From: Candidatus Sungiibacteriota bacterium | Lineage (GTDB): Bacteria > Patescibacteriota > Minisyncoccia > Sungbacterales > HO2-52-23 | Assembly: GCA_016180435.1 (NCBI GenBank) | Contig: JACPBG010000003.1 | Location: 13,791-77,790 of the forward strand | Length of the DNA: 64,000 bases | Reading direction: 5' to 3' | Translations under genes and position numbers: made by a program | In this document: positions 2,843-51,720 of the stretch, piece by piece | Numbering within the stretch: position 1 is the first letter of the stretch | Layout: each line of letters begins with the position of its first letter | The notes under the pieces: generated by a model | The model's input: the letters and a program-made list of their open reading frames with translations, nothing else | Told to the model about the DNA's origin: nothing | The model's database searches: none

Positions 2843-4585
2843 TTGGTTCGTAGAATTCTCTGGCGAAATGAAAAAACGCTCTATAAGCGGAGTTGTGACG
2901 TTCCGGGACATACGGAGCAATTACTTTCTACGTATTCGGCTGAAAAGCCGTTTAACGTTTATGACCAAAAGTATTGGTGGTCAGATGTATGGGATCCTCT
3001 GCAATTCGGGAGGAAATATGATTTTACACAGCCATTTTTTGAACAATTCCGGCAACTCATTCGGGCGGTTCCGCATCCTATACTTTTGACCGAGTATACT
3101 ACCTGTATAAATAGCGATTATTCCAATTGGGCCGGGGAGCTTAAAAATTGTTATTTAATCTCCGATGCGGATGTGGTGCAGGATTCCGCATACGGATCAG
3201 GAGTGTTTAACTGTAAAGATTGTTTTGATAACGGGAATATCTCGGAATCCGAACTATCGGCGCATAATTTCAATGTGCGTAAGTGCTACCGTACTGTTTT
3301 TTCGGTAGATTGTTCGTCATGTACGGAGGTATGGCTATCTAAAAATTGTATCGGATGCACAAATTGCTTTGGTTGCGTTAATTTAAGAAATAAATCTTAC
3401 CACATTTTTAATGTCCCCTACGATAGAGATAACTATTTTAAAAAATTGGAAGAATTCCGGCTCGGATCATTTGAAAATTTTGAAAAACTGCGGTTTGAAG
3501 CGGAGAAATTTTGGAATGCGCAGCCACAGAAATATATGCGAGGATTTTCTAATACGCGAACCTCGGGTGATTATATCTATCACTCCAAAAATGTTCAGCA
3601 CGGTTTTTTAATTACCGGCGTGGAAGATAGTAAATTTGTAGTTCTTACTCATGTTCCTTCTACGAAAGATTGCTATGACTATACGGATTGGGGATATGGA
3701 GCGGAGCGGCTATATGAATGTATGACGGTGGGGCTAAAGGCGAGTGATATAAAATTTAGTCACATTGTTTTCAGAAATGTGATGGATGTACAATACAGTT
3801 TTTGGTGCGGATCCGGATCATCAAACCTTTTTGGCTGCATCGGCCTCCGCTCCAAATCCTACTGCATCCTAAACAAGCAATACACCAAAGAAGAATACGA
3901 AACACTCGTCCCCAAGATCATTAAACACATGAACTCCATGCCTTATATAGATAAGAAAGGAAGAGTATATAAATATGGTGAATTCTTCCCTCCAGAGCTC
4001 TCTCCCTTCGCATATAACGAAACCATAGCCCAGGAATACTTTCCTTTAACCAAGGAACAAGCCATAGAGCAGGGATATGCCTGGAAAGACCCCGAGGAAC
4101 GAAATTACAAAATCCAAATTCCAAATGATAAACTACCGGATCACATTAAAGACGTTCCCGACGATATCGTGGGGCAGGTGATAGAGTGCGGCCATGCCAT
4201 ACAAGAATCAAGAAGCATGAATCATGAATCAAGAGTAATCTGTAACGAACAATGTACCGAAGCCTTTAAGATCATCAAACCCGAACTGGAGTTCTACCGT
4301 AAAATGAACCTGCCCCTGCCCCGTTTATGCCCCAATTGCCGGCATTACCAGAGAATCAAGCAAAGAAACCCCCTCCGCCTCTGGCACCGCCAATGCATGT
4401 GCCAAGGCGCAAAATCCCAAATCTCAAATTCCAAATCCCAAACAAATTCCAATTTCCAATATAAAAACACTGCCGCTCATTCCCACGGACCAAGTCCCTG
4501 CCCCAATGAGTTTGAGACATCTTACGCTCCGGAGAGACCGGAGATAGTTTATTGCGAGGCCTGTTACAATACGGAGATTATTTAG
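2843..4585 (+). CDS. Cysteine-rich repeat protein with zinc-ribbon motifs (C..C..RNKSY-type repeats, C-terminal CxxC...LPLPRLCPNCR ribbon). The N-terminus appears disrupted (frameshift or deletion near 2796-2806).
   Basis: The long ORF has repeated units (CSSCTEVWLSKNCIGCTNCFGCVNLRNKSYHIFN and CGSGSSNLFGCIGLRSKSYCILN) and a C-terminal ribbon ELEFYRKMNLPLPRLCPNCR. An ATG at 2766 encodes MTRQCQNCKQ in another frame, and VPPPTWCPECR continues in the 2843 frame. The ORF in the 2843 frame has no ATG and uses a TTG start. Confidence 0.55.
   Translation: MVRRILWRNEKTLYKRSCDVPGHTEQLLSTYSAEKPFNVYDQKYWWSDVWDPLQFGRKYDFTQPFFEQFRQLIRAVPHPILLTEYTTCINSDYSNWAGELKNCYLISDADVVQDSAYGSGVFNCKDCFDNGNISESELSAHNFNVRKCYRTVFSVDCSSCTEVWLSKNCIGCTNCFGCVNLRNKSYHIFNVPYDRDNYFKKLEEFRLGSFENFEKLRFEAEKFWNAQPQKYMRGFSNTRTSGDYIYHSKNVQHGFLITGVEDSKFVVLTHVPSTKDCYDYTDWGYGAERLYECMTVGLKASDIKFSHIVFRNVMDVQYSFWCGSGSSNLFGCIGLRSKSYCILNKQYTKEEYETLVPKIIKHMNSMPYIDKKGRVYKYGEFFPPELSPFAYNETIAQEYFPLTKEQAIEQGYAWKDPEERNYKIQIPNDKLPDHIKDVPDDIVGQVIECGHAIQESRSMNHESRVICNEQCTEAFKIIKPELEFYRKMNLPLPRLCPNCRHYQRIKQRNPLRLWHRQCMCQGAKSQISNSKSQTNSNFQYKNTAAHSHGPSPCPNEFETSYAPERPEIVYCEACYNTEII
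4411..4460. repeat. In-frame TCCCAAA/TTCCAAA repeat run in the Cys-rich protein gene (KSQISNSKSQTNSNFQYKN)
   Basis: aaaatcccaaatctcaaattccaaatcccaaacaaattccaatttccaat. Confidence 0.75.
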
Positions 4586-12878: not shown

Positions 12879-12965
12879 GAAGACAAATTTTCAATTTTTA
12901 ATTATCAATTTCCAAACAAATAAAGTATAACATTATTAGATAAAAAAAGAAGCGCTGGTGGGCGC

Positions 12966-13427
12966 TTAGATTTTTTTATTGAGGCGGGCCCTGATTCTGA
13001 GAAGATCGATATCGTTGTCTATGCGGCGTAAGAAGAGTTTGTTGTCTCTAATTTCGGTCGGGTATCGTGCTTCGTCGGGGAAGAGAATGATGATTGCTAT
13101 GCTATTTTCTGAGATCTTTTTGAGTGTCGCATGCAGATAGGAATCGCTAACGAGAATATCCAGCTGTTCCCGACAATCTTCGGGCTGGATTTTATCGGAG
13201 CAACTGAATTGACCCGTTTCCAGCAGTGCTTTACGATTCCTGTCTATTTTTATGGATTGAACCCCCTTTTCTTTTACTTCCCGAATAATCCTATTTGCTG
13301 CGATTTCTGGCGACGAGGTTGATTGCGAATGCCGTGAAACGATATCTATTGGAAAGAGTGCTCCTAGAAAGAAAGATAGAATAAATATTCCGGCAAAGGC
13401 GAGATAGCACCTGGTATGATTGTTCAT
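12966..13427 (-). CDS. Membrane-anchored hypothetical protein
   Basis: Start chosen at MNNHTRCYLAF because GAGGAG sits 4 nt upstream (reverse complement of 13428-13445). An N-terminal TM segment is present. Confidence 0.45.
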   Translation of the reverse strand: MNNHTRCYLAFAGIFILSFFLGALFPIDIVSRHSQSTSSPEIAANRIIREVKEKGVQSIKIDRNRKALLETGQFSCSDKIQPEDCREQLDILVSDSYLHATLKKISENSIAIIILFPDEARYPTEIRDNKLFLRRIDNDIDLLRIRARLNKKI

Positions 13428-13460
13428 AAAACTCCTCAATTTGAAGGAACGATAAGATAT

Positions 13461-14972
13461 ATGTATCATAAAGCTATTATGCCGTCAAGCGAAAAGGAAA
13501 CTTTCTATATAACCACCACCCTGCCTTATGTAAATGCGGATCCGCATATCGGGTTTGCTTTGGAAATTATTCAGGCCGATGTGATCGCGCGGTATAAGCG
13601 TCAGCAGGGGTATGATGTAATATTTAATACAGGCACGGATGAGCACGGGTTAAAAATTTATCGCAGGGCGCTTGAAGAAAAAAAAGATCCGCAAAAATAC
13701 GTGGACGAACTTGCTCCGCGATTTGAACGCCTGAAATCCGCGCTTAATTTAAGTTACACCCATTTTATCCGCACCACCGATCCGCATCACAAGCTCGCGG
13801 CACAGGAATTTTGGAAACGGTGCCGGGCCGCGGGTGATATATATAAAGCGGCGTATCATACCAAATATTGCGTGGGATGCGAGCTTGAAAAGACCGACTC
13901 CGAACTTGAAGATGATCGCTGTCCCGTCCATCCCAATCTGCAAGTTGAGATAATTGAAGAAGAGAATTATTTTTTCAGATTTTCCAAATATGAAAAACCG
14001 CTTCTCGGATTCTTCGCAGAGAATTCAAAATTCGTACTTCCGGAACACCGTTTTAACGAGGTTAAAAATTTTGTGGCTTCGGGTCTGCGTGATTTCAGTA
14101 TTTCGCGCCGATCCGAGAAAATGCCATGGGGCGTTTCGGTCCCGGATGATCCGGAGCATGTTATGTATGTCTGGTTTGATGCTCTGGTAAATTACATTTC
14201 CACCCTGGGCTGGCCGGAAGATAGGGTAAATTTTAGCGCATACTGGCCGGGCATGCAGGTTGCGGGAAAAGACAATTTGAGGCAGCAGGCCGCTATGTGG
14301 CAGGCTATGCTTTTGTCTGCGGGGATTCCCAATTCAAAACAGATTTTTATCCACGGATTCATTACGGTAGACGGAGAGAAGATGTCAAAGTCCCGCGGAA
14401 ATGTAATTGATCCGGCGGAGCTTGTTCAAAAATATAGCACAGATTCAGTTCGATATTATCTGCTGCGTGAAATTCCGTCCGGCGAGGACGGGGACTTTTC
14501 ATATAAAAAATTTGAAGATAGATACAACGGGGATTTAGCCAATGGACTGGGGAACCTGGTCGCAAGAGTTGTAACGCTTGCGACCAAAGTCAAAAGTCCC
14601 GCCAGGGGCGAGGCTCGCTTGAGGCGGCAAAAACCAAAAGCCAAAACCGAAGTTCAAAATATAAAATTAATCCCTGAACTGAAAAATGTAAAAGAAAATT
14701 ATGAAAAGGCGATGGAGGAGGTACGGCTGATTGAGGCGCTGGAAGAAGTATGGAAATTAATTCATATAGCGGATAAATATGTGAATGAAGAAAAACCATG
14801 GGAAAATAAAAAGCCGGAAGTGATTTCCGATCTTTTGTTTCTGATTCTTGAAATCGCGTCTTTGCTTAACCCGTTTTTGCCCGAAACCGTGGAAAAAATA
14901 AGGGAACAGATAAAAATTGCCGACGGTCAATTTGAGATAAAAAAAAGCGAAAATTTGTTTCCACGGCTATGA
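13461..14972 (+). CDS. metG: Methionyl-tRNA synthetase
   Basis: PYVNADPHIGFALE (HIGH-type), KMSKSRGNVIDP, and an anticodon-binding helical domain. The alternative start at 13479 is equally plausible. Contains the in-frame 35-bp palindromic element at 14598-14633. Confidence 0.88.
   Translation: MYHKAIMPSSEKETFYITTTLPYVNADPHIGFALEIIQADVIARYKRQQGYDVIFNTGTDEHGLKIYRRALEEKKDPQKYVDELAPRFERLKSALNLSYTHFIRTTDPHHKLAAQEFWKRCRAAGDIYKAAYHTKYCVGCELEKTDSELEDDRCPVHPNLQVEIIEEENYFFRFSKYEKPLLGFFAENSKFVLPEHRFNEVKNFVASGLRDFSISRRSEKMPWGVSVPDDPEHVMYVWFDALVNYISTLGWPEDRVNFSAYWPGMQVAGKDNLRQQAAMWQAMLLSAGIPNSKQIFIHGFITVDGEKMSKSRGNVIDPAELVQKYSTDSVRYYLLREIPSGEDGDFSYKKFEDRYNGDLANGLGNLVARVVTLATKVKSPARGEARLRRQKPKAKTEVQNIKLIPELKNVKENYEKAMEEVRLIEALEEVWKLIHIADKYVNEEKPWENKKPEVISDLLFLILEIASLLNPFLPETVEKIREQIKIADGQFEIKKSENLFPRL
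14598..14633. repeat. GGCGAGGCTCGC-centred palindromic element (cccgccaggggcgaggctcgcttgaggcggcaaaa) in-frame in metG (SPARGEARLRRQK)
   Basis: Near-identical to 18065-18098 in leuS. Related copies lie at 49555-49600 (topA) and 63625-63659 (pth). Confidence 0.85.
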
Positions 14973-15577: not shown

Positions 15578-16459
15578 ATGTCAACTCTAAAGTTATTTGA
15601 TGTCCATACTCATACTCAATTTGCCGCATTTAAGGATGAAATCGATGTGGTGATTAAACGCGCGCTGGACGCCGGGATCTGGTTGGTAAATGTGGGAACC
15701 CAGCGCGATACTTCGGCCAAGGCAGTTGAAATAGCGAATAAATATTCGGAGGGAGTATATGCAACAGTCGGGCTTCATCCTATTCATACGGAAAAGTCAT
15801 TCCACGACGAAAAAGAATTGGGTGCGTTAGTGTTCTCTAATTCGCGCGAATTAGAGAATAAGAACTTGCCTGGATTTTTAAGTCGAGCAGAAGAATTTGA
15901 TTATGAGTATTACAAAAAATTAGCCGAAGATCCGAAAGTTGTTGCGATCGGGGAGTGCGGGCTGGACTATTATAGAACTAAGAATTTAGAACTTAGAACT
16001 AAGCAGTTTGATACTTTTAAAAAACAGATTGAGTTGGCGGTTGAATTAAAAAAACCATTGATGATTCATTGCCGTAACGCCTTTGAAGATTTGATCGACA
16101 TTCTACAAACTACAAACTATAAACTAAAATCCGGTATAATACATTTTTTCTCCGGTACCGTAGAAGATGCGCGAAAACTTTTGGATCTCGGATTTTCATT
16201 TTCTTTCGGTGGTGTTATAACGTTTACCCGAGATTACGATGAAGTCGTGAAATATATGCCACTGGAGCGAATCTTGCTGGAGACCGATGCGCCATATGTG
16301 GCACCGGTTCCATATCGCGGGAAACGCAATGAACCATTGTATGTTGTGGAAGTAGCAAAAAAAATAGCGGAGCTTAAAGCCGTTGCGCCAGGCGATATAG
16401 AAAGAATTACAACCGAAAACGCCTTGAAAATATTCGGAATAAAAAATGACCGCGATTAG
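15578..16459 (+). CDS. tatD: TatD-family metal-dependent deoxyribonuclease/hydrolase
   Basis: LFDVHTHTQF (HxH), a conserved E, and an HF.S..GG motif. Contains in-frame GAACTTAGAA and CTACAAACTA repeat insertions (15974-16003, 16108-16135). Confidence 0.8.
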   Translation: MSTLKLFDVHTHTQFAAFKDEIDVVIKRALDAGIWLVNVGTQRDTSAKAVEIANKYSEGVYATVGLHPIHTEKSFHDEKELGALVFSNSRELENKNLPGFLSRAEEFDYEYYKKLAEDPKVVAIGECGLDYYRTKNLELRTKQFDTFKKQIELAVELKKPLMIHCRNAFEDLIDILQTTNYKLKSGIIHFFSGTVEDARKLLDLGFSFSFGGVITFTRDYDEVVKYMPLERILLETDAPYVAPVPYRGKRNEPLYVVEVAKKIAELKAVAPGDIERITTENALKIFGIKNDRD

Positions 16460-16466
16460 TGCGGTC

Positions 16467-17387
16467 TTATTCGTATACATATGTTAGCCAGCGCGAGTAT
16501 TCCGGATGTTTCCCGCGCACCACCTCGGCGTAAAGATTCGCAAACTGCGTAGTAACTTTATCCGATTTGCTGGTCCATGGGGTAATTTGCCCCATGGATT
16601 CGCGTTGGATTTCAACAACCAGAAGAACTTCCATGGCGGTGCCGCAAAGAAACACCTCATCGCTTTTGAAAAGCGCCTCCGGCGTGATCAATGTCTCCTC
16701 TACGCGGTAGCCGTAGTCACGCGCCAGTACCAGGATCGTTTGTCGCGTAACCCCGTCTAATATTGATCCTTTTGACGGCGTATATATATTTCCGTTTGTA
16801 ACCATAAAAATATTTTCTGCAGATCCTTCGGCAACCATTCCCATCCAATCCAGAAGTATGGCTTCGTCGAATCCGGAATCCAGAGCATCGCGAAGCGCCA
16901 AAATTGAGTTTACGTAGTGCCCGCTGATTTTTGCTTCAACGTGGGTGCTTCGCGGGTCAATTCGCAGATATTTTGAAATTTTGGCGCGGATTTGTTCGTG
17001 TTCCAAGCGTTTGTTCCAGGAAAATACGGCAATCGCGACATCAGTTTTTTCTCCGAGGCGTAGTCCCAGGCGTTCTTCTCCGTACCAAGCGATTGGGCGA
17101 ATATATCCTTCGCGGAGTCCGCTTTTTTTGATCAGTTCTTTTATGGCATCCGTGAGTACTTCCGGCGAATAGCGCAGGATCATATATGCTTTGCGCTGGG
17201 AATAGTCAAAACGCTCCAGGTGCTTATCGAGCCGGAAAATAGCCGGACCGCGTTCTTCGGTGTCGTAAAAGCGTATTCCTTCAAATACTCCCATGCCGTA
17301 ATGAAGCCCCTGGCAGAAAATATTGGTTTTGGCATTTCGTCCGTCTATGATCTTGCCATTTTTCCAGACGTATTTTGAAAGCACCAC
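16467..17387 (-). CDS. ilvE: Branched-chain amino acid aminotransferase (class IV PLP enzyme)
   Basis: Class IV fold motifs (EGIRFYDT, LDKHLERF, catalytic Lys region) and 306 aa. Confidence 0.8.
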   Translation of the reverse strand: MVLSKYVWKNGKIIDGRNAKTNIFCQGLHYGMGVFEGIRFYDTEERGPAIFRLDKHLERFDYSQRKAYMILRYSPEVLTDAIKELIKKSGLREGYIRPIAWYGEERLGLRLGEKTDVAIAVFSWNKRLEHEQIRAKISKYLRIDPRSTHVEAKISGHYVNSILALRDALDSGFDEAILLDWMGMVAEGSAENIFMVTNGNIYTPSKGSILDGVTRQTILVLARDYGYRVEETLITPEALFKSDEVFLCGTAMEVLLVVEIQRESMGQITPWTSKSDKVTTQFANLYAEVVRGKHPEYSRWLTYVYE

Positions 17388-17497: not shown

Positions 17498-20400
17498 ATG
17501 CGCTATTTTCCCCACAAAATAGAAAAAAAGTGGCAAAAAATTTGGCTGAAAATGGAAATCTATGAACCCGACATCAAGAAAACCAAAAAGCCGTTTTATA
17601 ATTTAATGATGTTTCCGTATCCTTCCGCCGAAGGACTGCATGTTGGGAATATGTACGCGTTTACCGGCGCGGATATTTATGGTCGTTTTATGCGGATGCG
17701 GGGGCGTGATGTTTTTGAGCCGATCGGCCTTGATGGTTTCGGGATCCATTCGGAAAATTTTGCCATGAAAATTGGGAGGCACCCGGCGGATCAGGCCAAA
17801 ATTTCGGAGAAAAATTTTTACCGTCAGCTTGAGGCGCTTGGAAACGGGTTTGCTTGGTGTGAACGGCTTGAAACATATAACCCCGAATATTATAAATGGA
17901 CCCAATGGATTTTTGTGCAAATGTTTAAACGCGGCCTTGCCTATCGCAAAAAGCAGGCAGTGAATTGGTGTCCCAACTGCAAAACAGTGCTTGCGGATGA
18001 GCAGGTCATACAGAAATCCGAAATCCGAAATCCGAAATCCGAAACAAATTCGAAATTCGAAATTCCCGCCGGAGGCGAGGCTCGCTCGGGGCGGCAAAAT
18101 TCAAAACAAAAAATCACGATTGGCGTATGCGAACGATGCGATACGCCGGTGATTAAAAAAGAACTGGAGCAATGGTTTTTCAAAATAACGGATTATGCCG
18201 AGCGGCTTCTCGGAAATCTTGCAAAACTTGATTGGTCGGAGCGCGTCAAAATCGCGCAAAAAAACTGGATCGGGAAATCCGAGGGCGCTTTAATCAAATT
18301 TCCAATTTCCAATTTCCAATTTCCAATTAAGGATCTTGATTTTGTATTTATCCATGGATATAAAGGCGATTCACGGGATATTTTTTGGCCATGGTTTAGA
18401 AAAGAAATCGAACGTAGAGGCGCTAAGGTCTTTGCCCCCGACTTGCCCAATTCAGATGCGCCTAATATAAATGAACAGGTTCAATATGTTTTAAAGCAAC
18501 ATTCATTTAGCGAAAAGACCGTTATTGTGACTCACTCTTTGGGGGGCGTGGTTGCTATGAAATTATTGCCTTTATTGCACGATAAAATAGAACGGCTTTT
18601 GCTGGTGGCACCGCCTCTTCGGACGGAATTTCTGGATGGAAAAAAACGCCCGGCTTTAGAGGACGCTTGTGATTGGAAATTCAATTTTAATGAAATTAAA
18701 AAACACGCGAGGAATATTAGTGTTTTAGCAGATACGGAAGATCATGTTGTGTCCTTGGATCAACTCGTAGAAATTGCCGGACAGCTTAATGCCAGATTAC
18801 GGAAAACTGTGGCGAGTGCCCCGCATTTTAGAGAAATTGTAGAGCCGGAAATCGTAAACGAATTGTTTCCGGAAATTGAGATTTTTACCACGCGGCCGGA
18901 CACGCTTTTTGGAGCAACGTACCTCGTACTCTCGCCAGAGTACGAGGAAATTTCCAATTTCCAATTTCCAATTTCCAATCGCGGGGAAGTTGACGAATAT
19001 ATTAAAAATACGAAAGCTAAAACCGAGGAGGAAAGAATTTCCGAAGGCAGAGAAAAAACCGGAGTTGAATTAAAAGGAATAAAAGTTATAAATCCGGTAA
19101 ACGGCGAGGAAATCCCGGTGTGGGTTGCGGATTATGTTTTGGGCGGAGTGGGGATGGGCGCTATTATGGCGGTTCCGGCGCATGATGAGCGCGATTTTGA
19201 GTTCGCGAAAAAACACGATTTGCCGATTAAGACAGTCGTCGAATCATTCTACATTCAAAAAGAGGAACCGGGCGTATATAGAGAAAATGAATCAATCGTA
19301 CCGCGGGACGGGATAATTACAATTATCAAGCATTGGTCTGAAGATAAATATATTGGTCTTAAATGGAAAAAGGTTGCCTGGGGAACATTTCTTACGGGTG
19401 GCATAGAGAAAGGGCAAACCGCGGAACAGGCCGGAGTTGCTGAAATTTTGGAAGAAACAGGATATCTTCACCCCAAGTTTATTCGAGAACTTGGCATAAC
19501 GCACGGGCTTTTTTATCACGTTCCCAAAAAAGAGAATCGTCTTGTGCATGCACATATTCTCTATTTTGAATTGCAGGATGGGGCCCGGACCGAGATATCC
19601 GAAAAAGAGCAAGAGATTCATGATATAAAATGGTTGACTCTAAAAGAGCTTAAATCTTTCCTTACCCCCGCTACTCATACTTATGCCCTTGATTTATTTA
19701 GGGAGGGAATAAAAGTATATACGGGCGGGGGAATTCTTTGTAATTCCGGAGAATTCAACGGTATGGATTCAGAAAAGGCCAAATTGGAAATTACGAAATT
19801 CGTCTGCGGAGAGCGTAAAATTCAGTATCGCTTGCGGGATTGGTTGATTTCGCGACAAAGGTATTGGGGACCTCCAATTCCAATGATTTTTTGCGAGAGC
19901 TGCAAAAAATCACTGGAAAATTCCAAATTCTCGAAAGGAGAATTAGAAAATCCCGGATGGACAGCGGTGCCGGAAAAGGATTTGCCGGTAAAATTGCCGT
20001 ATGTGAAAAATTTCCGGCCGACCGGTACGGACAAATCACCCCTTGCCACTGTTAAAAAATTTTACAAAGTTCGCTGTCCCAAATGTAAATCTTGGGCTCG
20101 TAGGGAAACCGATGTTTCGGACACTTTCCTGGATTCGGCATGGTATTATTTACGCTATCCGAGCGTAAAAATGCAAAATTCAAAAATCAAAATGCAAAAT
20201 GAAAATTCAAAATCTAAAAATATAGAAATTCCTTGGAATTCGGAAATTACTAAAAAATGGACACCGGTGAACATGTACATAGGCGGAGCAGAACATTCTG
20301 TGCTTCATCTTCTTTACTCTCGTTTTTTAGCAATGGCGTTTAAGGATTGGGGATTGACGCATTTTGAAGAACCATTCACAAAATTTCGCGCGCATGGGCT

Positions 20401-21121
20401 TTTGATAAAAGACGGAACGAAGATGTCAAAGTCCAGGGGGAATGTGGTCAATCCGGATGAGTATATTAGAGCGTATGGCGCGGATGCTCTGCGTATGTAT
20501 TTGATGTTTTTGGGGCCGTTTGAGCAGGGCGGGGATTTTCGGGATGACGGGATCAGGGGAATAACACGGTTTTTGGAGAGAGCATACAAACTAATTTCCA
20601 ATTTCCAAAATCCAATTTCCAAACAAATTCCAAATTCAAAATCACAAATTCAAAAAATATTACACCAGACAATTAAGAAAGTAACGGAAGATATTGAGAA
20701 CCTGCAATACAATACGGCGATTTCGGCTTTAATGATACTTTTGAATAAGTTTGAAGAAAATCCGTCCGCAGTTACTAAAGAACACGTTTCAATATTTTTG
20801 CGATTGTTGGCTCCGGTTGCGCCCTTCATAACGGAGGAATTGTGGAGTATGTTTCCTACAAACTACAAACTACAAGCTACAAGCGTACATAAAAATAAGT
20901 GGCCGGAATATGACCCGAAATTGATTCAAGAAGACACGTTTGAGCTGGTGGTCCAGATAAACGGCAAAGTGCGGGACAAATTTGAGGCTCCGATTGATGT
21001 CTCTGAAGATAATGCAACCCGTTTGACTTTGGGGCGGGAGAGGGTTAAGAGTATAGTTGGAACCTTAAAACCGCGTAGGATTATTTTTGTCCCGAAGCGG
21101 TTGATAAATATCGTGATTTAG
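17498..21121 (+). CDS. leuS: Leucyl-tRNA synthetase carrying two extra inserted domains in one continuous ORF: an alpha/beta serine hydrolase (about 18329-18830) and a Nudix-like domain (about 19290-19720)
   Basis: LeuRS motifs: PYPSAEGLHVGN (HIGH-type), TTRPDTLFGATYLV, AVPAHDERDFEFA (editing Asp), NSGEFNGMD, YRLRDWLISRQRYWGPPIP and KMSKSRGNVVNP. The insert FIHGYKGD...THSLGG (GxSxG) resembles a YdeN/RBBP9-type hydrolase. The insert GGIEKGQTAEQAGVAEILEETGY is a Nudix-box-like sequence in which E is replaced by Q and R by A. At least six in-frame repeat insertions are present. Confidence 0.9.
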   Translation: MRYFPHKIEKKWQKIWLKMEIYEPDIKKTKKPFYNLMMFPYPSAEGLHVGNMYAFTGADIYGRFMRMRGRDVFEPIGLDGFGIHSENFAMKIGRHPADQAKISEKNFYRQLEALGNGFAWCERLETYNPEYYKWTQWIFVQMFKRGLAYRKKQAVNWCPNCKTVLADEQVIQKSEIRNPKSETNSKFEIPAGGEARSGRQNSKQKITIGVCERCDTPVIKKELEQWFFKITDYAERLLGNLAKLDWSERVKIAQKNWIGKSEGALIKFPISNFQFPIKDLDFVFIHGYKGDSRDIFWPWFRKEIERRGAKVFAPDLPNSDAPNINEQVQYVLKQHSFSEKTVIVTHSLGGVVAMKLLPLLHDKIERLLLVAPPLRTEFLDGKKRPALEDACDWKFNFNEIKKHARNISVLADTEDHVVSLDQLVEIAGQLNARLRKTVASAPHFREIVEPEIVNELFPEIEIFTTRPDTLFGATYLVLSPEYEEISNFQFPISNRGEVDEYIKNTKAKTEEERISEGREKTGVELKGIKVINPVNGEEIPVWVADYVLGGVGMGAIMAVPAHDERDFEFAKKHDLPIKTVVESFYIQKEEPGVYRENESIVPRDGIITIIKHWSEDKYIGLKWKKVAWGTFLTGGIEKGQTAEQAGVAEILEETGYLHPKFIRELGITHGLFYHVPKKENRLVHAHILYFELQDGARTEISEKEQEIHDIKWLTLKELKSFLTPATHTYALDLFREGIKVYTGGGILCNSGEFNGMDSEKAKLEITKFVCGERKIQYRLRDWLISRQRYWGPPIPMIFCESCKKSLENSKFSKGELENPGWTAVPEKDLPVKLPYVKNFRPTGTDKSPLATVKKFYKVRCPKCKSWARRETDVSDTFLDSAWYYLRYPSVKMQNSKIKMQNENSKSKNIEIPWNSEITKKWTPVNMYIGGAEHSVLHLLYSRFLAMAFKDWGLTHFEEPFTKFRAHGLLIKDGTKMSKSRGNVVNPDEYIRAYGADALRMYLMFLGPFEQGGDFRDDGIRGITRFLERAYKLISNFQNPISKQIPNSKSQIQKILHQTIKKVTEDIENLQYNTAISALMILLNKFEENPSAVTKEHVSIFLRLLAPVAPFITEELWSMFPTNYKLQATSVHKNKWPEYDPKLIQEDTFELVVQINGKVRDKFEAPIDVSEDNATRLTLGRERVKSIVGTLKPRRIIFVPKRLINIVI
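18013..18064. repeat. In-frame GAAATCC/GAAATTC heptad repeat in leuS (IQKSEIRNPKSETNSKFEIP)
   Basis: gaaatccgaaatccgaaatccgaaatccgaaacaaattcgaaattcgaaattcc. Confidence 0.8.
18065..18098. repeat. GGCGAGGCTCGC palindromic element copy in leuS (cccgccggaggcgaggctcgctcggggcggcaaaa; AGGEARSGRQ)
   Basis: About 90% identical to the metG copy at 14598-14633. Confidence 0.85.
18297..18328. repeat. In-frame ATTTCCA repeat x4 in leuS (FPISNFQFPIKD)
   Basis: aatttccaatttccaatttccaatttccaatt. Confidence 0.8.
18949..18980. repeat. In-frame ATTTCCA repeat x4 in leuS (ISNFQFPISN), preceded by an 11-bp inverted repeat cctcgtactct/agagtacgagg (18922-18948)
   Basis: atttccaatttccaatttccaatttccaatcg. Confidence 0.8.
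20168..20222. repeat. In-frame AAAATGCAAAAT/TTCAAAA repeat in leuS (KMQNSKIKMQNENSKSKN)
   Basis: aaaatgcaaaattcaaaaatcaaaatgcaaaatgaaaattcaaaatctaaaaa. Confidence 0.75.
20594..20655. repeat. In-frame TTTCCAA/ATTCAAA repeat in leuS (ISNFQNPISKQIPNSKSQIQKI)
   Basis: atttccaatttccaaaatccaatttccaaacaaattccaaattcaaaatcacaaattcaaaaa. Confidence 0.8.
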
Positions 21122-24019: not shown

Positions 24020-24571
24020 TTAATCAAGCCGGTTTTTTATGTATGATTTCAAGGCGCTTCTAAATGGAAGCGCAAATTTTTTAGGATGGCGCTTTACGTC
24101 TTTAAGCAGAGATTTAAGGCCAACAAATTTATACATACTTATTTCGTACGAATTGGGGCAAATTTTTTCAGAAGCGCGTCCTGTATATAGATGATGAATT
24201 AATTTTCCGTGGCGGCTTATAACATCAAATCTTCCTATATATTTGAGTCGGGTTTTAATATGCAGTTCCTCATACAATTCTCGTTTGGCAGCAGAAAGAT
24301 ATGATTCGCTTTTCTCTACGTGCCCGCCAGCCGAGGAGGTAAAAAGGCTGGGATATGCTTTGGCAAATTTAGGCCTCTGACAAATTAAAAGCTCGCCCGC
24401 CGGATTGAATAAAAATATATGTACAATGCGGCGCCATAGGCCCAGCCGTTTAGCGTCTTCTTTGGTACTAATGGTAATCCTCTTGTCATTCATATCAAAA
24501 AGATCAAAAATCCGTTTTTGGGGAAACCGTTTAGGATATTTTTTGGTTTTAGGATATATGGTGAAGGCCAT
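24020..24571 (-). CDS. Nudix hydrolase
   Basis: Nudix box GGHVEKSESYLSAAKRELYEELHI (GG.vE.gE......REl.EElg). Confidence 0.8.
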   Translation of the reverse strand: MAFTIYPKTKKYPKRFPQKRIFDLFDMNDKRITISTKEDAKRLGLWRRIVHIFLFNPAGELLICQRPKFAKAYPSLFTSSAGGHVEKSESYLSAAKRELYEELHIKTRLKYIGRFDVISRHGKLIHHLYTGRASEKICPNSYEISMYKFVGLKSLLKDVKRHPKKFALPFRSALKSYIKNRLD

Positions 24572-24653
24572 AAAAGCATCACGTAATAATTTACAAGAAT
24601 TGTATGAGAAAAAAATTTGCCGCCTACTTGAGGTAAAAACTGCGTCAAGTTTA

Positions 24654-25199
24654 ATGAGACCGCGCCGTTTGATTATATCAGGAATTTCGGGTTCGGGGAA
24701 AACAACCCTGGGAAAGGCGCTGGAAAAAAGGGGATTTCAAAAATTTCCCAATGTAGTCACCCGGCCACGTCGTCCGGGTGAGCGAGCAGAGGAAAACATT
24801 TTTATTGATGATAAAATATTCAATCGTTGGCGCAAAGAAAGGCGTTTGGTCATGTGCCGTCAAACTAATGGTGTCTGGCACGCCATTTTTAAAAAACATC
24901 TGAATCACGTTAAAAATTCACGCCACCCTATTTATTTTGACAAAAGTATTCCATCGGCTCGTCGTCTCACTGAATTTTTGCCTGGTGTAAAATTTTTATT
25001 GATTTACCTTTTGCCTCCATCATTTCGCATATTGTATAATCGCTTAAAGCTCCGTGAAGAAAAAGATGGAATGGGAAAGGAAGAAATTCATCAGCGATTT
25101 TTTGAAGAAATAAATGAATTGGGGCAAAGCGCGCAACTGCCTTACGCATACATCGTAAATGATAAGATTGAGCGTATTATTCGTCTTATTTCGCAATAA
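24654..25199 (+). CDS. Guanylate kinase-like P-loop kinase
   Basis: P-loop IISGISGSGKTT at residues 7-18 when started at 24654, plus VVTRPRRPGE (the TTRPPRxGE Gmk motif). The longer ORF from 24405 would overlap the divergent Nudix gene. Confidence 0.6.
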   Translation: MRPRRLIISGISGSGKTTLGKALEKRGFQKFPNVVTRPRRPGERAEENIFIDDKIFNRWRKERRLVMCRQTNGVWHAIFKKHLNHVKNSRHPIYFDKSIPSARRLTEFLPGVKFLLIYLLPPSFRILYNRLKLREEKDGMGKEEIHQRFFEEINELGQSAQLPYAYIVNDKIERIIRLISQ

Positions 25200-51537: not shown

Positions 51538-51720
51538 AATTTATAAAAATACAAAATATAGGAACCAAAATTCAAGCAGGGATTAAAATTCAAAATTCAC
51601 CTAATTCCTAATTCACCTAATAAAATTTTTAAGGCCCGAATTCTTAATTGCTTTATTAGATATTTTATTAGAAATTAGACAATTAGGTAATTAGGAATTT
51701 ATCTTAATGGGCTTTGTGTT

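Follow-up and report, generated by a model that had tools for sequence, protein, structure and literature searches.

A 64,000-nucleotide stretch of DNA from Candidatus Sungiibacteriota (contig JACPBG010000003.1, positions 13,791 to 77,790 of the forward strand), referred to below as the window, carries a leuS gene for a bacterial-type leucyl-tRNA synthetase (LeuRS) of 1207 residues in which two hydrolase modules are inserted into the CP1 editing domain (Table 1). The whole protein scored 801.7 bits against the NCBIfam model TIGR00396 (leuS_bact; cut-off 548.4) and its best phmmer match among LeuRS of the Protein Data Bank (PDB) was the T. thermophilus enzyme 1h3n (E=1e-177). Pfam searches of the whole protein identified the LeuRS catalytic domain, the editing domain (PF13603, residues 459-584) and Anticodon_1, together with Ser_hydrolase and NUDIX matches lying on either side of PF13603. 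An AlphaFold model of residues 1-1200, generated from a 111-sequence alignment, had a mean predicted local distance difference test score (pLDDT) of 88.7 and a predicted template modelling score (pTM) of 0.79, and matched LeuRS crystal structures with a template modelling score (TM) of ~0.8 relative to the target. The HIGH motif of the window protein has Asn in place of the second His, and this Asn was present at the same position in 89 of 121 clade members, so that HVGN is a typical HIGH variant of the clade. A leucine-specific domain is absent, T. thermophilus residues 579-635 being matched only by query residues 971-973 (about 20408-20416), and the chain runs from ...HGLLIKDG directly into TKMSKS, the same short connection being found in the clade consensus. 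Smaller extra segments relative to 1h3n are present at residues 173-209, 803-819 and 890-905. The host is an ordinary bacterial LeuRS and the inserts are members of PF06821 and PF00293; with its own catalytic and editing motifs all present, the protein is, as far as the 64-kb window shows, taken to be the leucyl-tRNA synthetase of this genome.

The first insert matched Ser_hydrolase (PF06821) over residues 283-437 with 36.4 bits against a cut-off of 22. In the alignment to 1h3n, query residues ~274-459 stand for T. thermophilus residues 240-242, in the first CP1 beta-hairpin directly before TTRPDT. When a profile built from the alignment of hydrolase inserts was searched against solved structures, B. 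subtilis YdeN (1uxo) was matched with E=1.3e-26 and RBBP9 with 2e-16. The xHSxG nucleophile elbow is present in the translation as THSLGG, with Ser347, and the predicted triad Ser347, Asp415 and His443 aligns with Ser75, Asp138 and His165 of RBBP9; the serine, the acid (Asp or Glu at 415) and the histidine were each conserved in 78 of 78 inserts. In the full-length AlphaFold model this module has a pLDDT of 93-98, with an alternating beta-alpha pattern at residues 281-457. It shares with YdeN and RBBP9 the xHSxG elbow and the Ser-Asp-His triad, and the predicted pattern would fit their compact alpha/beta fold of ~180 amino acids, but it differs from them in being embedded in a domain of another enzyme. 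Members of the YdeN/RBBP9 family form an acyl-serine intermediate; YdeN itself is an orphan enzyme to which no physiological substrate is assigned.

The second insert matched NUDIX (PF00293) over residues 627-721 with 41.6 bits (cut-off 21.1), and query residues ~583-738 stand for T. thermophilus residues 364-374, after AVPAHD...PIKTVV and before NSGEF, which places this insertion within CP1 as well. A profile built from the alignment of Nudix inserts matched 2azw (E=2.4e-12), then a diadenosine tetraphosphate (Ap4A) hydrolase and ADP-ribose pyrophosphatases. The pLDDT of the module was 93-98 in the full-length model and 95.2 when it was modelled alone, and Foldseek returned 511 PDB matches to the model at E<=1e-3, of which the best was 2azw (TM 0.74/0.79); the neighbours after it include several hydrolases of the dinucleoside polyphosphate (ApnA) class, namely Ndx1, the Aquifex Ap4A hydrolase (root-mean-square deviation 2.4 A), Rv2985, CT771, RppH and NUDT2. 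Likeness to 2azw and to the small Nudix hydrolases of the ApnA class (Aquifex 3i7u, T. thermophilus Ndx1 1vc8 and human NUDT2) extends to the fold (TM 0.64-0.79), to the REUxEE motif and to an aromatic residue or Tyr ~17 residues after the Nudix box. The LeuRS module differs from these enzymes in its low sequence identity to them (14-21%), in a box without the Glu of Gx5E and without the Arg, and in its covalent insertion into a synthetase.

Table 1. Features of leuS and heptamer arrays in the window. Positions are those of the window.
Feature	Residues	Position	Strand	Basis
leuS, 1207-aa bacterial-type LeuRS with two inserted hydrolase modules	1-1207	17498..21121	+	single unbroken open reading frame; TIGR00396
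HIGH motif, here HVGN (second His to Asn)		17639..17650	+	translation
In-frame low-complexity insertion, starting with a (GAAATCC)n array	173-209	18013..18124	+	TRF
(AATTTCC)x4.6 array, in frame (ISNFQFPI), just upstream of hydrolase module		18297..18328	+	TRF
YdeN/RBBP9-family alpha/beta serine hydrolase	281-458	18338..18871	+	PF06821, YdeN profile match, pLDDT
Predicted triad	Ser347; Asp415; His443	18536-18538; 18740-18742; 18824-18826	+	alignment to RBBP9
Canonical CP1 editing core, between the inserts	459-583	18872..19246	+	PF13603; aligned to 1h3n 243-363
TTRPDT	464-469	18887-18904	+	translation, 1h3n alignment
(AATTTCC)x4.4 array, downstream of hydrolase module		18949..18979	+	TRF; sequence of P0001 unrelated here
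GTG motif of CP1, here GMG	552-554	19151-19159	+	translation
AHD	561-563	19178-19186	+	translation
Nudix hydrolase module, Q-type	584-740	19247..19717	+	PF00293, 2azw profile match, model, Foldseek
Nudix box GGIEKGQTAEQAGVAEILEETGY (G634...Q640...A648 E649 I L E652 E653 T G Y656)	634-656	19397-19465	+	translation
X-loop F672, Y673	672-673	19511-19516	+	positions +16 and +17 after box
Rest of LeuRS: end of CP1, second half of catalytic domain, anticodon-binding and C-terminal domains		19718..21118	+	1h3n alignment, Anticodon_1
KMSKS, exact	975-979	20420-20434	+	translation
Heptamer arrays		776-843, 1194-1224, 4102-4126, 4412-4442, 12886-12915, 18013-18063, 18297-18328, 18949-18979, 20168-20219, 20587-20655, 51585-51599		

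Compared with the consensus GX5EX7REUXEEXGU, the Nudix box of the window protein retains the glutamates of REUxEE, whilst the first Glu is replaced by Gln640 and the Arg by Ala648. According to mutagenesis of MutT it is the REUxEE glutamates that bind the metals, and the Glu of Gx5E is not the main catalytic residue. The metal-binding positions were conserved throughout the Nudix relatives (E649 in 73/75, E652 in 72/75 and E653 in 73/75), most of which have a canonical box with Glu at 640 (56/75) and Arg at 648 (57/75). The window module belongs to a subtype, referred to here as Q-type, defined by a cluster at 50% identity or more and comprising 23 modules, free-standing proteins included, all of which have Gx5Q...[A/T/M]E-U-x-EE followed downstream by HGKFYHVP. 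Against the LeuRS homologue P0057 the nonsynonymous divergence (dN) of the Nudix module was 0.13 and that of the synthetase core 0.44, with synonymous sites saturated in every region; over this comparison the Nudix module is more constrained than the core of its own host. Because the subtype is common to 23 modules and is under very strong purifying selection, Q640 and A648 mark a stable, conserved subtype and not decay, and inactivation of the module by the two substitutions was rejected as an explanation. For the hydrolase, the ratio of nonsynonymous to synonymous divergence (dN/dS) against P0001, the closest relative, was 0.13, the synthetase regions giving 0.08-0.15. By these substitution rates, neither module is held less tightly by purifying selection than the synthetase core.

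The X-loop lies ~17 residues after the Nudix box and sets specificity for the moiety 'X', a Tyr there marking ApnA hydrolases (Dunn 1999, via PMC5389931). Aromatic residues occupy +16 in 73/75 and +17 in 66/75 of the modules, as F672 and Y673 do in the window protein, and neither the Pro of ADP-ribose hydrolases nor the NADH motif SQPWPFPQS was present at the X-loop. The Tyr expected of the ApnA subgroup is thus found, although as a predictor of that subgroup it is weak.

Between the two inserts the CP1 editing core is preserved. Thr553 of the GTG motif was present in 117 of 121 relatives and its replacement by Met (T553M) was seen in the window protein alone; across the family the CP1 editing residues are invariant or near-invariant. 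Because these residues are intact in 101 of 110 insert-bearing LeuRS, the inserted modules supplement the CP1 site and do not take its place, and the idea of inserts as substitutes for a defunct site was discarded on the same count. The earlier note on this DNA, made from the letters alone, had described one uninterrupted LeuRS frame of 1207 residues with a YdeN/RBBP9-like hydrolase before TTRPDT, a Nudix segment in the tail of the editing domain, and TTRPDT and the Asp of AHD retained, and all of this was borne out by the family models, profile and structure matches, translation and 1h3n alignment given above. Of the checks that it had proposed, profile searches placed each insert above its Pfam cut-off, and structure prediction modelled each with high confidence. 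It had also read the Nudix box correctly as carrying Gln for Glu and Ala for Arg, whereas its description of that Glu as the catalytic one did not hold, the metal-binding E649, E652 and E653 being kept.

The same note had allowed that the extra domains might be structural passengers. In such an account both modules would be catalytically silent, the Nudix acting, for example, as a nucleotide sensor of the NrtR type and the hydrolase as a docking surface, and would modulate CP1 movement or the binding of partners. The absence of the Gx5E Glu and the Arg from the window Nudix box and the GMG in place of GTG in CP1 would fit this, and non-enzymatic Nudix domains are known (PMC5389931). It is nevertheless improbable given the complete conservation of the hydrolase Ser, acid and His, the retention of all three metal-binding Nudix glutamates in nearly all modules, and the occurrence of the Gln/Ala variant as a conserved subtype that is also found in free-standing proteins and has a dN far below that of the core. 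Conservation and the gene neighbourhoods described below both count against silent passengers.

The insert-bearing architecture was then traced, as the earlier note had suggested, through the 120 best database homologues, the named members of which are all Patescibacteria-type metagenome-assembled genomes (MAGs; Liptonbacteria, Sungbacteria, Paceibacterota and Tyrphobacter). Both inserts were present in 41, the hydrolase alone in 35, the Nudix alone in 33 and neither in eight, three being ambiguous. The 41 double-insert proteins are independent homologues of 46-66% overall identity with both inserts at the same two sites, and insert lengths are tightly distributed (hydrolase 169-174 aa in nearly all and up to 181 aa; Nudix mostly 138-147 aa). 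Among the matches listed, LeuRS of Saccharibacteria, Nomurabacteria, Paceibacterota, Minisyncoccia and other MAGs likewise have a Nudix inserted at this site of CP1, and one Gracilibacteria LeuRS contains the hydrolase. No identical copy of the window LeuRS is recorded elsewhere in the databases searched. In one Candidatus Gracilibacteria MAG (L009:4974-8666) the LeuRS frame appears under translation table 11 as five adjacent same-frame open reading frames, one of which is the hydrolase module; this broken frame would fit decoding of UGA as an amino acid, in line with the alternative code known from this lineage.

Inteins typically sit in frame at conserved positions of essential genes, and identical 32-nucleotide repeats flank the hydrolase region. 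Both a chimeric assembly and a mobile or self-splicing element of the intein kind were therefore weighed. Neither has any appreciable likelihood. The double architecture recurs in 41 independent assemblies and single inserts in more than 100, base composition is even across the insert junctions, and both modules are predicted by AlphaFold as stable parts of the mature fold. Pfam found no Hint or intein family in the whole protein, and the junctions (...KDLD/FVFIHGY, ...NELFP/EIEIFTT, ...TVVE/SFYIQ and ...EGIKV/YTGGG) do not resemble those of inteins, with no Cys/Ser...His-Asn-type ends. A chimera was ruled out on the first of these grounds and an intein or mobile element on the last two; because so many independent homologues carry both inserts at the same sites and with such uniform lengths, misassembly is in practice excluded.

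On a neighbour-joining tree built from 746 core columns, ~25 changes were needed to explain the presence and absence of each insert, compared with ~36 for shuffled labels (minimum 29-30). Divergence of the inserts was uncorrelated with that of the core (Spearman coefficient 0.11 for hydrolase inserts and -0.07 for Nudix inserts). In P0001, the closest relative and a syntenic orthologue with 82% core identity, identity by BLAST was 76% for the N-terminal region, 70% for the hydrolase, 72% for the CP1 core, 35% for the Nudix and 69% for the C-terminal region. The corresponding values for P0057 were 43%, 38%, 65%, 84% and 46%. The tract of low identity in P0001, ~572 to 745, coincides exactly with the Nudix module and lies between the near-invariant AIMAVPAHDERDFEF and NSGEF...RDWLISRQRYWGPPIP, and it is clear from this alignment that a Nudix of another subtype (E-type) occupies the same site, the cassette having evidently been replaced. 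Homologous recombination through the conserved flanks would be the simplest mechanism. With synonymous sites saturated, the 84% Nudix identity to P0057 was rejected as a sign of recent transfer, and the discordance is better read as an old exchange of subtype combined with strong constraint. The modules evidently behave as cassettes that leuS alleles have acquired, lost and swapped with one another, and the replacement between syntenic orthologues offers a clean natural case of domain shuffling inside an essential gene.

Turnover of this kind resembles that of resistance and defence genes, and an acyl hydrolase together with a nucleotide pyrophosphatase would be well suited to attack an aminoacyl-nucleotide. 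The modules might accordingly be pictured as protecting LeuRS, through hydrolysis at the target, from antibiotics or toxins that are aminoacyl-nucleotides, such as leucyl-adenylate mimics like agrocin-84/TM84 or microcin C, LeuRS being a known target of such compounds and the TM84 complex 3zgz being among the structural matches of the model. We regard this as highly unlikely, since the gene neighbourhoods inspected showed neither toxin nor immunity genes and the saturation of synonymous sites makes the exchanges old and not the product of a recent arms race.

Counterparts of both modules also occur as separate genes beside leuS. A profile search recovered separate Nudix proteins (163 aa; 51-58% identity to the insert) whose genes stand directly upstream of a co-directional leuS in four loci (L001, L003, L004 and L005), and the same arrangement was found, among the matches listed, in a locus of Saccharibacteria (L018). 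In L004 the gene order is Aminotran_4, Nudix, leuS, where the window has Aminotran_4, leuS. In L006-L008 the gene directly upstream of leuS encodes a separate YdeN-like hydrolase (196-198 aa; 49-50% identity to the insert), the LeuRS itself being of bacterial type, 888 aa long and free of inserts. On a Pacearchaeota contig (L092:4001-8549) five co-directional genes that overlap or abut encode two Ser_hydrolase proteins, a YbaK-type tRNA_edit deacylase, a Ham1 nucleoside triphosphate (NTP) pyrophosphatase and an archaeal-type LeuRS (810 bits to PRK12300). The window itself holds a second, free-standing NUDIX gene at 24023-24736 on the minus strand, ~2.9 kb downstream of leuS and beyond glmS; it scored 55.9 bits with Pfam and a weak 13.7 bits against the profile of LeuRS-type Nudix modules, and it therefore belongs to another Nudix sub-family.

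The spread of the Nudix clade was followed by an exhaustive HMMER search of the insert against 1.84 billion cluster representatives, which returned only 316 matches at E<=1e-3. Among the best 149 of these, 107 lie inside LeuRS, 36 are small free proteins and one lies in a prolyl-tRNA synthetase (ProRS). The 107 embedded in LeuRS comprise 84 with one Nudix, 13 with Nudix and hydrolase and 12 with two or three Nudix modules, two proteins belonging to both of the last groups, and within the same best 149 matches LeuRS carries up to three Nudix copies, at no fewer than three sites. In the class II ProRS (P0399, 643 aa) a Nudix of the same sub-family occupies residues 398-515, between the anticodon-binding and C-terminal domains. 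An extreme case among the matches listed is a 1735-aa LeuRS of a Candidatus Taylorbacteria MAG (L022:4902-10106) with five accessory hydrolase modules: Nudix at ~259-388, ~431-570 and ~933-1078, a YdeN-like hydrolase at 620-797 and a HAD-family hydrolase at 1199-1352.

These distributions bear on whether the modules, if active, are active on behalf of LeuRS. They might instead be unrelated housekeeping enzymes, a generic esterase and a house-cleaning Nudix, lodged in permissive CP1 loops, with an essential and constitutive protein serving as a mere carrier in the streamlined genomes of the candidate phyla radiation (CPR). CP1 is mobile, surface-exposed and tolerant of insertion, LeuRS has received several types of hydrolase (Nudix, alpha/beta hydrolase and HAD), the frequent loss implied by ~25 state changes per module on the core tree would be unsurprising in a passenger enzyme, distant free-standing relatives are unlinked to leuS, and Ham1 and HAD point to general nucleotide sanitation. 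Against this, the Nudix sub-family is almost confined to LeuRS or to genes adjoining leuS, and the hydrolase is linked to LeuRS of both the bacterial and the archaeal type as well as to a YbaK-type deacylase. Permissiveness alone would hardly account for repeated insertion at three or more sites of one host protein and in one ProRS. Housekeeping enzymes carried by LeuRS are accordingly a rather unlikely explanation.

By all these comparisons two intact, selected hydrolase domains reside in an intact LeuRS and are specifically associated with LeuRS genes; both are predicted to fold independently, with catalytic residues kept across more than 75 homologues. It is very probable that the modules are active accessory enzymes functionally coupled to LeuRS. 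As a whole, the data are probably best explained by exchangeable accessory hydrolases coupled to LeuRS, one a presumptive aminoacyl-ester deacylase and the other a presumptive ApnA-type pyrophosphatase, whilst the specific substrate proposed for each of the two is put forward only tentatively. On this view surface loops of the CP1 editing domain have received two autonomous modules, both of which would act on substrates linked to LeuRS.

The serine hydrolase would be an additional acyl-ester hydrolase that, through an acyl-Ser347 intermediate, removes amino acids from mis-acylated tRNA(Leu) or acts on other aminoacyl esters or adenylates not cleared by the threonine-rich site of CP1, a division of labour that would resemble the one between the INS domain of ProRS and free-standing YbaK. 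An extra aminoacyl-ester hydrolase is the best guess because the module lies in the editing domain, adjoins both types of leuS and shares an operon with a YbaK-type deacylase. RBBP9 strips N-terminal amino acids by cleaving aminoacyl-X bonds and needs a free alpha-amine (PMC8866121), and it is also cited as the esterase that activates valacyclovir (reference 5 in PMC7730578), in which an amino acid is esterified to a nucleoside analogue. This chemistry is close to that of the aminoacyl-A76 ester.

The substrate of the Nudix module would be a dinucleoside polyphosphate that contains adenine, or an adenylylated by-product akin to it (Ap4A/ApnA class), made by the synthetase from aminoacyl-AMP and ATP; E649, E652 and E653 would bind Mg2+ and the F672/Y673 X-loop would stack on the second adenine. 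Synthetases make Ap4A from aminoacyl-AMP and ATP, and because of this, of the X-loop aromatics and of the ApnA hydrolases among the structural neighbours, clearance of such by-products is the leading hypothesis for this module. Human NUDT2 reportedly degrades Ap4A made by LysRS, which would be a precedent for a Nudix enzyme removing a synthetase by-product, and the presence of the clade in ProRS fits a substrate generic to synthetases. The functions guessed at in the earlier note, hydrolytic proofreading and turnover of Ap4A or aminoacyl-AMP, thus remain the most plausible and are supported by genomic context.

Several observations weigh against enzymes dedicated to LeuRS, or against the substrates proposed for them. 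Eight of the 120 close relatives have neither module, which makes the modules dispensable over evolutionary time. More distant free-standing members of the two families (P0126, P0127 and P0142) do not adjoin leuS, and the HAD module of L022 and the Ham1 gene of L092 fit general nucleotide house-cleaning equally well. The residues with which RBBP9 binds the alpha-amine (Ser76, Tyr99 and Glu108), looked for by alignment, are not conserved in the hydrolase inserts: Ser76 corresponds to Leu348, YdeN also having Leu there, and Tyr99 to Pro373, where the family has Phe or Pro, whilst Glu108 falls on a position that varies and is ambiguously aligned. These residues define the specificity of RBBP9 and not membership of the family. 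For Nudix enzymes, sequence is a notoriously poor guide to specificity; 2azw, the closest match in structure, is uncharacterised, the ApnA hydrolases among the Foldseek neighbours are interspersed with NTP pyrophosphohydrolases, and the Q-type box is without the Gx5E/Arg pair.

Coupling of hydrolases to LeuRS may be compared with arrangements already known. The window enzyme resembles bacterial-type LeuRS with CP1 (1h3n and E. coli 4aq7) in fold (TM ~0.8), in KMSKS, TTRPDT and the Asp of AHD, and in its zinc modules, anticodon-binding and C-terminal domains. It differs from them by ~335 extra residues that form two enzyme domains inside CP1, and further by HVGN for HIGH, the lack of a leucine-specific domain, GMG for GTG and several in-frame low-complexity peptides. 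The occurrence of a hydrolytic module either inserted or free-standing follows the logic of the ProRS INS domain and free YbaK/ProXp, and of AlaX with AlaRS. In the present case the free form adjoins the synthetase gene, and in L092 the YdeN-like genes share an operon with one of YbaK type. Unlike YbaK, the folds inserted in LeuRS are an alpha/beta hydrolase and a Nudix, there are several modules, the CP1 site is kept alongside them, and the deacylase role is a predicted one. IleRS-GNAT (NCBIfam NF040702) and the NMNAT-Nudix protein NadM (PMC7824862) likewise have a second catalytic domain on an adenylate-forming enzyme of the HIGH superfamily; these are terminal fusions, whereas the LeuRS modules are internal to CP1, several in number and exchangeable.

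The earlier note had considered this LeuRS architecture undescribed. No description of an alpha/beta hydrolase or Nudix in LeuRS was found in the full-text literature searched, most subscription journals being outside its scope. The architecture is, however, not unique to the window, being common in Patescibacteria and already present in NCBI, UniRef and JGI records, where such LeuRS are named 'class I tRNA ligase family protein', 'alpha/beta fold hydrolase' or 'leucyl-tRNA synthetase/predicted alpha/beta hydrolase family esterase'. Splitting insert-bearing LeuRS between the first two of these names, as present annotation does, is misleading. The editing folds of aminoacyl-tRNA synthetases form a small, well-catalogued set, namely CP1, INS/YbaK, the AlaX/ThrRS N2 domain and DTD. 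Three independent lines of genomic evidence now link LeuRS to two unrelated hydrolase folds: insertion, conserved adjacency of the free forms to both types of leuS, and purifying selection. If the modules act on LeuRS substrates, they would represent a new kind of quality control or by-product clearance in minimal genomes, and testable substrates would be available both for the orphan YdeN/RBBP9 family and for the Nudix clade with a Gx5Q box. A wider proposal, which we offer as speculative and which would add a new fold to the modules of translational proofreading and suggest a physiological role for the YdeN/RBBP9 family, is that in CPR bacteria and DPANN archaea LeuRS, and occasionally ProRS, may be a docking platform for exchangeable hydrolase cassettes, with the YdeN/RBBP9 family as an unrecognised aminoacyl-tRNA/adenylate editing factor acting in cis within CP1 or in trans beside leuS, and with the Q-type/E-type Nudix clade clearing adenylylated by-products.

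Upstream of leuS the window contains genes for MetRS (13380-14969, plus strand), TatD (15578-16459, plus strand) and a class IV, branched-chain-type aminotransferase (16467-17387, minus strand). The order MetRS, TatD, Aminotran_4 on the minus strand and leuS is kept in the locus of P0001 (L096).

Heptanucleotide tandem arrays are distributed across the window, with units AATTTCC, AAATTCC, AAATCCC, GAAATCC and CAAATTC in 2-10 copies; for (AATTTCC)3 with up to 3 mismatches there were 10 matches, against 0.02 expected. Those within leuS are in frame and encode loop peptides of low complexity, comprising ISNFQFPI, which occurs twice, EIRNPKSETNSKFEI, MQNSKIKMQNENSKSKN and ISNFQNPISKQIPNSKSQIQ. The insertion at residues 173-209 has pLDDT <50 at 176-204 and is absent from P0001, and in the AlphaFold model only residues 176-204 and 893-907 are disordered. 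The 32-nucleotide direct repeats mentioned above (18296-18327 and 18948-18979) are formed by the two (AATTTCC) arrays on either side of the hydrolase module; they are 100% identical and bracket the hydrolase module together with the TTRPDT segment; they are spaced by 652 nucleotides, which is not a multiple of 3, so that recombination between them would break the frame. Slippage or gene conversion is a possible origin for these repeats. Most of the leuS arrays are absent from P0001, which has a (GTCAAAA)4 array of its own.

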